Shown: positions 51,801 through 57,800, numbered from the stretch's first letter. The stretch is DNA of 64,000 nt from Escherichia coli (GCF_044324785.1 NZ_CP172127.1); one strand, 5' to 3'. Numbers: made by a program.

Positions 51801-54800
51801 CGTACGGCAGGCGTGATGACTGTACGTCATCAGACAGGCAGCAATGCCGGCGGCTTCCGGGCTCATTTCAGCGCGGTTACCGTTCATGGCATTGAACAGT
51901 ACCCATGTTTCGTCATCATCATCATCCGGTTCGGGGGCCATAAATGCCCCGCCGTTGTTCAGGGTGTACAGATTCCAGATACCACCGCAGTAGTCTTCGC
52001 ACAGACGGTCCATCCAGCCGAAGACACGGGGCTCCAGGGTCACCCACTGTGGAATGAGGCCAAAATGCTGCGGCCAGAAGCTGATGCGCTGTTCATCAGG
52101 GACGGGAGTGGCAACCAGTTGAGACTGGTTATTCCCTGATGCAGTAGTTACGGAAACAGAAGGTGTGGTGGAGCTATGCGAAAAGGTTGTCATGAGATGA
52201 TTCCTTATAAAAAGTAAATGAATGGAAGAATGCCTGGGGACTGGTACAGACGTGAGTCAGGGCTGCACTTTCAGGGAAACAGCATCAGCGCATGCTCTCC
52301 AGCAGCGTTTCTGCCATCACCCACAATGCGCGGTTGAGTTTTATATCGGTATCAATGCTGTGAATGGCCCGGGTATGGATACGTTTTCCTTTTGCACTGC
52401 GACCGGAAATCCCGCCTTTCAGCATATTCTCCTGGATGGTCTGATAAGCACTCCACAGGTCCTTACCGTAATCCTCCCGGCGTCGTGGTGTCAGAATGTC
52501 GGCGGTGGTGACGGGCTGATGTTCGTCACCATAACGGTAAGTCAGTGCCGCCTGTGCCAGCGCCTGGCGTGCCGGTGGCGGCAGGACCAGCGACTGCATG
52601 GCATCACGCTTCTCCTCTATCCGGTCAAACACGCCCACCACCTCGTAAGCCCCTTCAATGACTCTGTCCACCACATTTCCCCGGTGCGGAACACGCACTT
52701 CCCCCAGAGACTGACCGCAGACGCATCCGTTCTGGCAGACGAACCTGAAGTAACCCGGCAGCATCTGGTAGCTGGAGGTACCGTCATGAGAGTTGAGCAG
52801 AATAATTTCAGGGACATGTTGTCCGTTTATCTCCCCGTCACGGCGCAGACGCAGCATGTGTTTGGTATACCCCCGGCGGCCCGGGTCACGTACGCGGGTC
52901 TGGCAGGCGAAGAATGGCTGAAAGCCTTCCCGCTGCAGGCTTTCCAGCACGGTGATGGTGGGGATGTATGTATAGTTCCGGCTCCGGGAGGTGTGTTTAT
53001 CTTCCCCGAAAATCCCGGGCACATGGTGCATCAGCTCTTCACGGGTCAGCGGACGGTCACGGCGTATCTGGTTCGCATAACCAAAACGACTGGCTAATCG
53101 CATACTTTGCTCCTTATCAGTGGTTAAGACTGAATGACGTAATCAATGAAAAAGCCGCGTCTCACGGAGAAGACGCGGCCTGATGGATGAAATGAATGAG
53201 GGTTTACCGAAGCCCTTCAGCATTGTGGTGACGCAACCGGAAATGCGTTTCCTGGTTATCGCCGGGGCCGGTCAAAAAGCGGGGACATTCAGAACAGGCG
53301 ATCCCACAGTGTGATCAGCAGGCGGATAATGCGATCACGGGCTTTGCGCAGAAGCTGCAGCATCCAGGCCGGAAAGCTGAACCGGGCAATGGCAGCGTCA
53401 AAACTCTGGCCGATGGCGTCACCAAAAGCCTGCTGTGCGTGTTGCTGATCCTGCGCAGTGCGCTTTTCATTCCGGATATGCGAATAAACCGCGCTGGTTG
53501 CCTGTGGTGGCAGGGCGTGGATCATCAGAGACACAAATGCCGGAAGATTCCAGCCGGCAGGAGCGGCAACGGGGAGTACCGGAAATGATGAAGGGAACAG
53601 GGTTGCCACCCGGGCTGTCACCGTCGCCAGCGAGAGTTCCTGGTGACGGGACGGGCATTTTTCTGTGTCGTTCCATTCTTCAGCAGGAAATACGCGATCG
53701 GCATGGCTGAGAACAAACAGAAAACGCGAGGGATCTGCACCTTCATTCAGTAAAAACTGATGCATGGCGATGTCGGCAGCATACGCACGTTCATCAGCCC
53801 GCAGGATCCAGATAATCAGATCCAGTTCGGGCAGTAACTGACTGTAAAGTGCCCGGTATTCCTGATCATGCTGTGGTGTTTCGCCAGTGCCGGGCAGATC
53901 GACCAGCGTCATTCTTCGTTCACCGGGCTGAAAGGTAAGACGATGAGCCTGACGGGTGCAGCCGTTCAGCGGATGCGTGGCGCAGACACGGGACTGAAAA
54001 ATGGCATTGCACAGGCTGCTTTTTCCGGCACCGGATTTACCCATAATGCCAATCACGGGCTCGTAATGAATAACACTGTGGAGATGTTCAAGGATTTTCT
54101 GGCGAATTTCTTCAGGAAGAAACGTCAGATATGATTTCACTTGTGCGGAGAGGGAAGAATGGCTGAATGACATACCGGTATCCTGTTGATTTCACTGAAC
54201 CGGATCACACTAATCCGGTTTATCATTCAGGTAATATGGGCGTGAAAAAATCTGGAGTGACAAAGTTCGGGAGGAGTGATGGCATCACTGTCGATTAATA
54301 CGCTACGCCGAATGAGCATTTGTAAAAGTCAGGCCTGGAAAGATACCCAGCGAATACTGAAGCGTAGTGGACTTGTGTACAGAGGGGAACGGTCAGAATC
54401 GTTTGATCCTGAGAAACATTTTAATCGTTATACGGTGCGTTATCTGTACCTGCTTAACATAATTGCGCTTAAGATAAGGTCGGTTAGTAAATTTTCCTGT
54501 TGGATCGAGGTGGGACAATGCCATCGTATGACTGGTAAACATTTATCTCTTAATGCCCCGCCTTTTATGCTGATTCCGCGTAGTATCCGGAGAAAAGTGG
54601 ATGGATTCAGACAGTCAAAAGGTGAAGCAACCCCAAAATCGGCTCAACCGTTCACGGGCAGTTTGTATGAGGTTTTGAGAAAGGAGAGCGATTCAGCTAA
54701 GCTGGACGCATGGATTGCTGAACTGCCTCTGAACTTGCAGGAGGAGGGAAAGGAAATCTCAGTCATGGGATTTAGTCCACGGGCTGTGGCCCGACCTGTT

Positions 54801-57800
54801 CTTCGGTCAGCATCCCCGACGTTTGAACTGTTTTATCAGGAGTATCAATCCCTAAGATTAAAATCTGTTTTTAAATTTGAACCAAGATTTGAACAACTTT
54901 TAACAAGACTGAGCTTTAGAAAACAATCAATTCTCAGAAAACAACAATACAGGGTTAAATCGCAATTACTGGAGAGACTGGGGAATGTGTTGTTTTTCAC
55001 GTCGCTTTATAACCAGGGATGTTTAGAGGAGTTTATAAATGCACTTGTGGAAAAGGAGGACATTTATCTGAAAATGTCCCCTGGGGAGGAAAAGGTGAAA
55101 GCACACCAGAAAATGGTTAACTACATTGAAGCGTTCTGCAACAAAATGACGGAAAAATACCTGATGCCCGCAGCAAGCAGACACTACAAAAAGAAGAAAA
55201 TCGCCAGGAGCGAAAGTGGTGAAAGTTAATCCAGTCTACCGTACAGAATCAGTTGTTCCAGAATAGCCTGCTGTGTTGTTTTCCGCTCTCTGGTCAGTCT
55301 GTCCAGAGCGCTTTTTGCGGATGGCGATATCTTTACGTTGATTTGTACCCGTTTATCTTTTTTTCCATCGATAAACTGTTTTCTGAATGCATTGTGCATC
55401 TTGTCGAAAAATCTTTCTTTTGCAGCGAATCCTAGGTGAAATTCTTTTGGCGTCAGTAAACAGGGTGTGTCTGTGGGGAATAACATTTTTAGTAAAACTA
55501 CAATGGCAATATATCTTTCGTTATCATTTACAGGATTAAACCAGGAAAGATATGTGGGTGAGATACGTGCATCAATATATTCCCATGCCCATTTCAGTTG
55601 TTCGGTATTCTTTTTAAGCCATTTGGCTTCGTTTCTCTTTTCGAGTCCCAGCCAGTTTTGATGCATTATTGAGATAATCCGATCTGCTTCCCCATAAAGG
55701 ATTAACGCATTAATCCATTTCCCTATAACATTCAGTCGTGTTTCATGACTTGAAGGAATAATTGTCATGGGGTTATCCTTCATAACGATCACCCCCTTCA
55801 AGGCAGAGTTGAACTCAGATTCATTATTAAGTTTAAGTTTTTCGGGAACTGTATGAGACATAATTAACCAGAACCAGAATGCTGCAATTTCATTTTTTCT
55901 GATCCATTCAGGTATGTGATTATCTGCCAGATTATTATCATTCAATAAATGCTCAGTTGTTTTATTTTTCCAGTCATATCTATTCACGTTATAACCGCCT
56001 TTATATTGTTTCATCTGATTACGCCTCAATCGTTTTCTTTTCTGGTGATTTTCACCATCACATGTCAGTTGTATATGCAAGGGGATCAATAAAAATATCA
56101 CCCTGCAAGCACTTCAAAGCTGATTATGGGGATATTCTAGAACTATTCACAAAACTATTCCAGACATATCAAGAACTATTTCTTGACCTATTCATAATAA
56201 AATAAAACATGCTATCAACTACGGCTCATATTCTCCTTGGGGGTGTCGTTGTACTGTTCGACTGTTCTTGTGGTCAGATTAACAATCTGAAGAGTAAAAG
56301 CGACAGTAATCTGTCTGTTATAGTGGCGATAAAAACACTGAATGCGCATCCTGTATGTGAAATCCTGTCATGTAGAGCAGTAAGCAATGACAGACATGCA
56401 TGTTATATGTGAAGGGGGCCGGGAGACGACATAATCAGTATGGCTGTCATTCTGGTTGTAAAACGCGATCACTTTCCGGGGGTAAAAGATGATATGGAGG
56501 TTGACAAACGGTTTGCTTCGGATTGTCTTTTCTGGGGCCTGAAATACGAGGGCAGAAAAATAATTCCAGAGTAAATCTGCTCTGTTTTTAGGACAGAAAA
56601 CTCCATGCTGGCTGTAAAAGTGAAAAATTAACACCCAGTATGTATGGAAGTCTGAAGATGTTGAGAATGTCGGTATGATACTATATACACATATTTTACT
56701 AAGTATTTTTACTAAGCATTTCAGTAAGTGTTATACACGTATTTTCTACTAAGTGTTTTACCAGACATACACGTGTTTTCATAAACAGCCCTATAAGTGT
56801 TTTCATTAAGCATTGCTGTACACATTGCTTTGTCTGAAACACATCCAGTTTAGTAAATCTTTACGTTAGCTAAAATCAGTTTAAAGCTGCTGTAAAACCT
56901 TTCTGTTTAAGCAATCAATCTGCTATTCGATTTTACTGATGTTGCGTTTAACCTTTTCTGAGATTTCGAGTTTCGACGTTAGCATGAGAAAAGTATCTTT
57001 ACGCTAAATCAACCCGAACTTTCCTGAAGTAATCTGACGTTTTTTTCGATGTGCTTACGACGATTCTGTTAAACGACTTTCTGGATGTTTTGATAACAAT
57101 CAGATTGAGGCATTAACGATTCCTGACGTTTTCTTTTCCGTGTAAGGTCATTCTTTTTGTCATGAGGTTTCTTCTTGCATTGCGAAAGTGTGATGAACGG
57201 TTTTGGTGTTTTTGATTCAGATAAGGTTTACGTTATCGATGGTTAATCGTTTTTATGGTGCGTAGTGAAACGTAACTTTTTCAGGATGAGAAAATCGATT
57301 CTGATGTTGGTGATTTTTGTTCTTGTGGCGGGGTTTATCTGTAAACAGGTTTTAAACGTGTCATTCACATCCGTGATTGAGTTGTGTGATTAAGCTGTAG
57401 GTTTTGGGGTTGTTGTTGATTTGCATTACCAGGAAGCGTTCTGGTTGCGTTTCTGGTGTTTTGTTCGAATGTTCTGTGGATCCTTTTCCCTTCTGACTTT
57501 TCTCGTTGTCCATGTCGTTTTTAAATCCATTCGCTGTTCTTGAGTGTTTTTACCCTGCGTGTAGAATTATCTTTTCGTTCCGGGATGGTTTGTTCCGTTT
57601 CAATCACTCTTAATCAGAGAGTTGTAGCATTGCTCAATGCCGGATGCCGTAAAGTTTTACCGCGGTGATTAATGATGTGAAGTCAATCCAAATCAACGGA
57701 GATCTCTCATCATGAATCAACCAATACACAATGCTTACTGGTTATCCCGTTTTGAAAGTATTCTCAACAGTGCCCTGGCGCAGCACCGTGCCGTCTCGTT

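Follow-up and report, generated by a model that had tools for sequence, protein, structure and literature searches.

A convergent gene pair beside a YfjP-type GTPase gene as a linked backbone module of CP4-57-like enterobacterial islands

Two convergent genes with overlapping 3' ends, here called A and B, lie in an island beside setC at the selC locus of Escherichia coli (GCF_044324785.1 NZ_CP172127.1), and they raise the question of whether they are variable cargo, perhaps for defence or addiction, or a part of the island itself. We analysed them within a stretch of 64,000 nucleotides of one strand (the window). The sequence-only reading of this DNA had described a pair of AT-rich, unassigned open reading frames (ORFs) of 317 and 291 amino acids that overlap by 4 bp, and this description was borne out. 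The longest ORF of A spans 54276..55229 on the plus strand and that of B 55226..56101 on the minus strand, both from GTG starts, and they meet in a shared TTAA. The G+C content is 43.0% for A and 37.4% for B, compared with 54.2% for the neighbouring GTPase gene, 50.8% for the Gp2-like gene on the other side and 49% for the whole window. RefSeq/PGAP annotation, taken from E. coli chromosomes 100% identical to the window such as that of strain ES1, names both products hypothetical protein and places their starts at shorter, better supported positions (Table 1). A Shine-Dalgarno sequence, GGGAGGAG, is found at 54269-54276, 2 nt before the ATG of A at 54279, and homologs of B start at the methionine equivalent to 56014.

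Both genes are genuine and more than chance ORFs, because their protein families diverge in frame to 23-25% identity, their ratios of nonsynonymous to synonymous substitution rates (dN/dS) are below 1 and the overlap of their stops recurs. The databases hold 68 relatives of A at 50-100% identity, and an exhaustive profile search of 1.84 billion representatives revealed about 17 further full-length relatives at 23-30%; relatives of B reach down to about 25%. Pairwise dN/dS was 0.39-0.80 for A and 0.2-0.55 for B, with reading frames intact throughout. The 4-bp stop overlap was found again in seven independent alleles in which the junction was read (L003-L006, L009, L011 and L012, L numbers being our locus handles), as TTAA in all except L012, which has CTAA. 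The two genes do not overlap in L015, L017, L019 and L020, where 57-121 bp separate them. Two terminator-like hairpins for the B transcript were matched inside the 3' coding end of A; on the opposite strand, the codons of the conserved Lys-rich tail of A, KKKKIARS, supply the T-run of these hairpins, so that one stretch of bases seems to serve twice.

Linkage of the two genes was assessed by hmmsearch over six-frame ORFs, in five E. coli alleles (84, 80, 83, 86 and 74% DNA identity) and in loci found through divergent B proteins. The results showed that B lies next to A, in convergent orientation, in every A-containing locus (21/21, metagenomes included), and distant B partners that had been left out of profile building still matched the profile, with E values of 1e-27 to 1e-42. 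Convergent pairing also holds for A proteins at 23-30% identity, and the A-family clusters, from whose members the taxonomy of the distant loci was taken, include Citrobacter, Serratia and Hafnia. We found neither a loss of conservation nor a failure of the two genes to co-occur, and the earlier description of an uncharacterised two-gene unit is fair, both ORFs being real, conserved and strictly linked. A search of the available literature by gene names and six WP accessions returned no study of these proteins. Pseudomonas islands with an IntY/AlpA/RadC/Gp2-like core have been described, and nothing resembling A or B is present there (PMC12595487).

The gene order kept around the pair is a YfjP-type GTPase gene (minus strand), A (plus), B (minus), an AT-rich spacer and a YagK/YfjJ 'inovirus Gp2' gene (plus; the Gp2-like gene), with AlpA lying in the spacer between B and the Gp2-like gene in some genera. 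In a metagenomic element (L020/L021, 1-6341), an A-B-Gp2-AlpA unit stands beside genes of an integrative and conjugative element (ICE), including one for a TraG P-loop ATPase, with no GTPase gene, and this arrangement ties the module to conjugative elements. An 860-amino-acid Hsp70/actin-like ATPase is encoded there in place of the GTPase. A proper was never found without B, whereas B occurs alone. Without A, it heads the same co-directional array on a Klebsiella IncFIB/HI1B plasmid (L022), upstream of WYL, DUF932, Ard, RadC and YeeU genes with no GTPase gene, and in K. aerogenes (L023), directly upstream of the GTPase gene. In strain 2/0 (L007 5393-9044), an IS66 element splits B and leaves A intact. 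Beside the GTPase gene of strain 22AR0750 (L026), an IS1-mediated deletion has spared only 248 bp from the start of A. A search of IMG/VR returned one locus in 2.9 million viral contigs, indicating that the pair is not a phage feature.

The regulatory DNA before A was conserved as well. The GTPase gene and A diverge across a 105-bp spacer, and a promoter and start-region element within it, GGTAATATGGGCGTGA, was recognisable in 9/9 loci of an alignment that spans A homologs at 23-30% identity and the GTPase-free L020; no locus departs from AATAT and GT, and at least 70% retain the G and C beside them. The same spacer holds an inverted repeat, AACCGGAT-N7-ATCCGGTT, which is a candidate operator. 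The distant loci, in an alignment read by eye, seem to keep an inverted repeat at this place with a differing sequence.

In sister E. coli islands, whose GTPase is 90-91% identical to that of the window, the slot of A is held by another gene, X (WP_001107219.1, 407 amino acids; L028 6986-8209 in NZ_CP098217.1, and also L029), which has no B partner. X matched the A profile in hhalign with a probability of 95.6% (E 1.2e-8, 182 columns), compared with 0.06% for the control YfjH, and the motifs S-x-x-W-L-N-T-Q, P-R-x-I-R-R and G-G-L-Y are common to both proteins; judged by this profile match and these motifs, X is a distant paralog of A. Upstream of X lie the same spacer, inverted repeat and promoter element, the element differing by one G>T change. 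The N-terminus of X carries a Cys-rich extension of about 100 residues (C-x4-C...C-x2-H). Unlike A and B, which are hypervariable, X hardly varies, its DNA being at least 90% identical across 976 genomes. A stretch at the C-terminus of X that resembles a ribbon-helix-helix (RHH) domain was rejected (hhalign probability 0.4%), and YfjH of CP4-57, a protein of similar size, was rejected as a homolog of A or B.

Homologs of the GTPase occupy 8309 places in 4305 of the 5426 complete E. coli genomes, often several per genome, and 1875 genomes carry a close full-length copy. The pair was found at 810 places in 742 genomes and X at 1069 places in 976 genomes; A and X together cover roughly the whole close-GTPase lineage. 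In the K-12 island CP4-57 (L027, 2761351-2767355), A, B and X are absent, and abpB, abpA, yfjM, rnlA and rnlB lie between yfjJ and yfjP, so the backbone slot can be overwritten by defence cargo. The pattern of variable cargo, in which presence varies and position-specific regulatory DNA is not conserved, was not found for A and B. Because synteny and promoter are kept across genera at 23-30% protein identity, and because the alternative occupant of the slot is a paralog behind the same promoter, the variable-cargo position that had been proposed from the sequence does not hold. These findings indicate that the pair is a linked backbone module, and not cargo, of a CP4-57-like family of enterobacterial integrative islands, whose defining genes encode a YfjP-type GTPase, DUF932, an antirestriction protein, RadC and CbeA/CbtA.

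We then considered the two proteins. The AlphaFold2 (AF2) model of A is mostly helical, with a predicted local distance difference test (pLDDT) score of 84 and a predicted template modelling (pTM) score of 0.83. A fold search with it returned no relatives outside its own family, PADLOC, PHROGs, NCBIfam and Pfam gave no match to the window protein or to distant members, and sequence-profile searches of the PDB gave nothing significant; no family database covers A. The absence of a nameable domain noted earlier thus stands for A, which remote-homology searches left without relatives beyond its own family, and is qualified for B, for which they gave weak matches of RHH type.

In B, a variable N-domain of alpha-helices precedes a C-terminal domain that resembles an RHH. 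The window protein matched RHH_1 (PF01402) at E 0.14, PF10723 (RepB-RCR_reg) at E 0.32 and NF010256 (CopB/RepA2) at E 0.03, all of them weak matches. Among the members of the B family, NF010256 matched 8/10, with E values from 7e-5 to 1.6e-3. In each of them the match is confined to about 40 C-terminal residues, and these keep one and the same register against the CopB model, whose positions ~37-77, out of 85, they cover. The best PF10723 match in the family was at E 1.1e-3, a PF10723 match is precomputed for distant members, and IncL/M RepC and a PHROG Arc-like repressor gave further weak matches in the same register. Some B alleles carry the PGAP label 'replication regulatory RepB family protein'. 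The AF2 monomer places helices at residues 231-243 and 248-257. Moreover, the RHH segment is the most constrained part of the pair (dN/dS 0.08-0.29), and residues 1-100 of B are near neutral (0.8-1.0). The C-terminus of B is likely an RHH domain.

A candidate operator of B consists of four direct repeats that resemble AACTATTC (GAATAGTT on the B strand); they are arranged as two pairs with 12-bp spacing and precede the start of B by 127-179 bp. Across the 64-kb window the GAATAGTT motif is no commoner than chance (43 matches, 45.7 expected), and 4 of the 43 matches, together with two of the three exact copies in the window, fall within 53 bp upstream of B; our own Poisson estimate for such a cluster is well below 1e-3. 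The same repeat core, phased at 11 bp, was found upstream of B in L003 and L005. By eye it is also present in L004, L006, the Citrobacter-like L012 and, as a palindrome, L020, with an ATAGTT core in L012 and L020. All alleles with this core share the pattern Q-x-N-x-K in the putative DNA-reading strand; in L009, L011 and L025, where the strand reads QISALIS, the upstream repeats are different, and the operator-proximal 250 bp co-vary with B type. This co-variation of repeat type with the RHH strand is indirect evidence, and is what would be predicted for an autoregulated RHH repressor.

Alignment of the GTPase-to-Gp2 regions of six E. coli alleles revealed a variable segment, with identity of 35-60% over ~54790-56290, which takes in the whole of B with its putative promoter/operator, as well as the 3' half of A. 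The flanks keep 85-99% identity. Measured against the window, the bordering genes for the GTPase and the Gp2-like protein reach 83-100%, and values of 65-99% apply to most of the spacer, which dips locally to 57-59%. The alleles are mosaic; L003 and L004 have B proteins 94% identical and only 49% identity in the middle of A, and the window and L005 have 95% identity in the RHH segment and 29% in the N-terminus of B. Two different B alleles occur at two sites, in two islands, in NZ_CP033635.1, and counts suggest about 12 genomes with both B types. A likely regulator and its candidate operator that are hypervariable inside a conserved backbone have the layout of an immunity- or incompatibility-type cassette, and by analogy with a phage immunity region, or with the copB/copA incompatibility region of IncFII plasmids, the variability suggests a role in specificity.

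The explanation that we favour, with middling confidence, is that B is an autoregulated RHH regulator at the edge of a two-array control region and A its family-specific partner. Dimers of B arrayed on one face of the helix would bind the phased repeats over their own promoter, most likely repressing it. B lies at the border of the AT-rich control region between the GTPase-to-CbtA array and the array of the Gp2-like (HUH) and AlpA genes; it is therefore placed to switch one or both arrays and would set their on/off state. A, expressed from its deeply conserved promoter divergent from the GTPase gene, probably works with B, and B would supply it with DNA targeting. The stand-alone X has its own Cys-rich N-terminal extension, and it is speculation that this extension, in a protein without B, fits an A core in need of a DNA-targeting module. 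The 3' overlap would cause the A and B transcription units to interfere with each other.

A more ambitious form of the same idea, which we regard as rather doubtful, is that the pair could be the specificity switch of a very common Enterobacterales island family. B would then be a sensor-repressor whose fast-evolving N-domain reads a signal from a helper element or phage, in the manner of Stl of the Staphylococcus aureus pathogenicity islands (SaPI), and A would be an effector or an anti-repressor of B. Together they would time the anti-restriction/toxin/GTPase array and the HUH/AlpA genes, and decide the cross-talk between co-resident islands.

Several observations weigh against B as an autoregulated RHH regulator partnered by A. 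No RHH match of B reaches a curated or gathering threshold, NF010256 scoring about 20 bits against a cut-off of 87 bits, and for this reason the RHH assignment is held as likely and not as established. The AF2 monomer calls no strand at VQINVKIS, and residues 219-227 have pLDDT below 50; low strand confidence is expected in a monomer model of an obligate dimer, which is no proof of a strand. Short repeats arise easily in AT-rich DNA such as 56141-56193, and 1.5 kb separates these repeats from the Gp2-like gene in the E. coli alleles. The role given to A derives from its position alone, as the protein contains no domain that can be recognised. Recombination breakpoints lie inside the pair, as in L003/L004, and tight allele-specific matching of A and B is therefore disfavoured. 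With regard to specificity, the data give the best place per genome and so leave room for a second copy of one allele in the same genome.

An alternative that is unlikely but credible is that B serves as an accessory that binds an origin or an origin of transfer (oriT) for the Gp2-like HUH endonuclease, with A as a further accessory, in the replication or mobilisation of the excised island. RHH proteins are known as accessories of relaxases (TraY, TrwA, NikA and VirC2), and CopG and CopB have a related role for Rep genes. B always adjoins the spacer opposite the Gp2-like gene, its closest profile matches are plasmid replication regulators, and the Gp2-like protein, with its HUH-like and YxxKY motifs, may be an active rolling-circle endonuclease. 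The downstream DUF932, ArdB-like and RadC genes also look like plasmid leading-region genes. The spacer itself is conserved. Although the 250 bp nearest B are variable, the remaining ~1.45 kb from ~56265 are mostly 77-94% identical per 50-bp segment across alleles, with two dips to 0.64-0.67, even where the B proteins of the E. coli alleles compared share only 25% identity. Iteron-like ACTAAGYRTT repeats, with an ACTAAG core, are present at 56698-56801, and for the interval 56265-57711 the candidate functions are origin, oriT, long leader and RNA gene; Rfam returned no family in 53000-60000. However, the only clustered repeats that match across alleles are at the B promoter, away from the Gp2-like gene and the conserved spacer, and no nick site or origin was identified. 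Hypervariability of B beside a conserved Gp2-like gene and a largely conserved spacer would also be odd for a dedicated origin-binding partner.

It is distinctly unlikely that A is the effector, and B the RHH antitoxin or sensor, of a toxin-antitoxin pair or of a system for abortive infection or phage defence, a proposal close to the candidate defence or addiction system that the sequence-only reading had put forward. The convergence of the genes, with their stops interlocked, excludes a bicistronic toxin-antitoxin operon, since the two cannot be co-transcribed as in a type II system, and no recognisable toxin fold or family was found in either protein. PADLOC (PADLOC-DB v2.0.0) gave no significant match for 12 family members (A, B and 10 distant members), its single row being a chance-level Cas11 match at E 0.026, and PHROG and NCBIfam gave no toxin or defence match for A or B. 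It is true that RHH domains are common in antitoxins, that A proper never occurs without B whereas B occurs alone, that the N-domain of B evolves fast, and that the pair is AT-rich and on a mobile element. The idea that this position often carries defence or addiction genes also has some basis in abpAB and rnlAB, which lie in the equivalent interval of K-12 CP4-57; in A and B themselves no such signal was found. Yet strain 2/0 keeps A intact with B split by IS66, and X lives without B in 976 genomes. B is large and basic, the island already has CbtA/CbeA as a toxin-antitoxin system, and the position and promoter are backbone features kept across genera. A defence or addiction role for the pair is thus not supported.

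That A and B are functionally independent neighbours, linked by shared descent and overlapping through gene packing, is very doubtful. Convergent adjacency in all 21 loci persists although the surroundings change, as in L020, where ICE genes replace the GTPase gene, and the interlocked stops recur with different sequences, TTAA and CTAA. Independence would accommodate the breakpoints inside the pair, the existence of B without A and of X without B, and the 57-121 bp between the genes in L015, L017, L019 and L020. Finally, a ParG- or omega-like centromere-binding role for B, with the repeats as partition site of the excised island, is highly improbable: type Ib adaptors are RHH proteins that bind tandem repeats and a GTPase is encoded nearby, but no ParA or TubZ-type motor is present, the GTPase is of MMR_HSR1/YfjP type and absent from L020 and L022, and the islands are maintained in the chromosome.

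Returning to B as a putative autoregulated RHH regulator with A as partner, we compared the pair with known systems. B resembles CopB (RepA2) of the IncFII plasmids R1/R100 in that its C-terminal ~40 residues align with the CopB model in 8/10 family members. In IncFII, the antisense copA gene comes after copB, and the rest of the element is conserved around this variable cassette; B likewise has a convergent gene after it, and the A/B cassette varies within a conserved island backbone. In contrast to CopB, with about 85 amino acids, B has 262, three times as many, with an unrelated N-domain of about 210 residues, and, unlike copB, which lies in one transcript upstream of the rep gene under its control, B shares no transcript with a rep gene: the Rep-like Gp2 gene diverges from it at a distance of 1.7 kb, and downstream on the B strand come antisense-A and then the GTPase gene. 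Its convergent partner, unlike the copA antisense RNA, is a gene for a protein of 316 amino acids. P22 Arc/Mnt and pMV158 CopG offer a second comparison, in which B resembles them in its predicted strand-helix-helix module and in tandem repeats over its own promoter. Like these phage repressors and the hypervariable master repressors of satellites such as SaPI Stl, B stands at the border of a divergent control region and shows strong allelic diversification among elements that are otherwise alike. It differs in that its RHH domain is C-terminal, whereas that of Arc, Mnt and CopG is N-terminal, and in that no inducer or helper element is known for A/B; Stl proteins, unlike B, are helix-turn-helix (HTH) proteins. 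RnlAB and AbpAB of K-12 CP4-57 occupy the same interval between Gp2-like gene and GTPase gene, but they are co-directional operons with demonstrated anti-phage roles and have no sequence relationship to A/B, a convergent pair that is kept from genus to genus and that no defence model matched. The pair is best classed as a mobile-element control cassette, putatively built on an RHH protein, together with an orphan protein family.

The coordinates of the features are collected in Table 1.

Table 1. Features of the A/B locus, in coordinates of the window
Feature	Position	Strand	Basis or remarks
YfjP/YeeP-family GTPase gene (MMR_HSR1/YfjP type), first gene of the GTPase-DUF932-antirestriction-RadC-CbeA/CbtA array	53289..54173	-	ORF list, annotation
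Inverted repeat AACCGGAT-N7-ATCCGGTT, candidate operator in the GTPase/A divergent spacer	54198..54220		sequence
GGTAATATGGGCGTGA, conserved promoter (-10-like TAATAT) and start-region element of A	54230..54245	+	nine-locus alignment
Gene A, likely extent	54279..55229	+	316 amino acids, basic, isoelectric point (pI) 9.9, orphan family, WP_000157733.1 (RefSeq/PGAP ATG start)
Two terminator-like hairpins for the B transcript, inside the 3' coding end of A	55164..55213	-	pattern match only
Interlocked A/B stop codons, TTAA, 4-bp 3' overlap	55226..55229		sequence read
Gene B, likely extent	55226..56014	-	262 amino acids, basic, pI 9.5, WP_000816188.1 (RefSeq/PGAP ATG start)
Likely CopB/RepA2-like ribbon-helix-helix region of B, residues 215-258, KRVQINVKISPSAKSALDRLTRERKTTQQAILEQLI	55241..55372	-	weak profile matches, consistent register
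AT-rich (38% GC) spacer, B to Gp2-like gene	56015..57711		allele alignment
Sigma-70-like B promoter candidate TTGTGA-18-CATAAT, overlapped by repeats 1-2	56123..56152	-	consensus match only
Four AACTATTC-like direct repeats (GAATAGTT on the B strand), candidate B operator	56141..56193	-	starts 56141, 56153, 56174, 56186
Inovirus Gp2 / YagK-YfjJ family protein gene, first gene of the opposite array	57712..58443	+	HUH-like HYHVILL 58012-58032, YLVKY 58348-58362

The Gp2-like gene is followed by a second YagK/YfjJ-domain gene and by an AlpA-like HTH gene (59441-59677). Recognisable island cargo lies beyond ~60.5 kb and includes a phosphorothioate-dependent restriction endonuclease gene and IS3. 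The cargo end, ~60500-64000 (L001 12345-15701), also holds a frameshifted ProQ/FinO gene and gene fragments beside the IS3 element, and the gene for the restriction endonuclease, which binds phosphorothioated DNA, runs off the end of the window.

The island family to which the pair belongs is nearly ubiquitous in E. coli and carries virulence, defence and toxin genes. The 53-bp repeat array at 56141-56193, the conserved promoter of A and the proteins A and B offer handles on the circuit that controls these islands. With A recognised as a constant part of the backbone and B as a likely RHH regulator that is hypervariable, the pair should not be annotated as a candidate defence system, tempting as that label is. 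The cassette would gain in importance if it proved to switch these very widespread islands or to determine their specificity.

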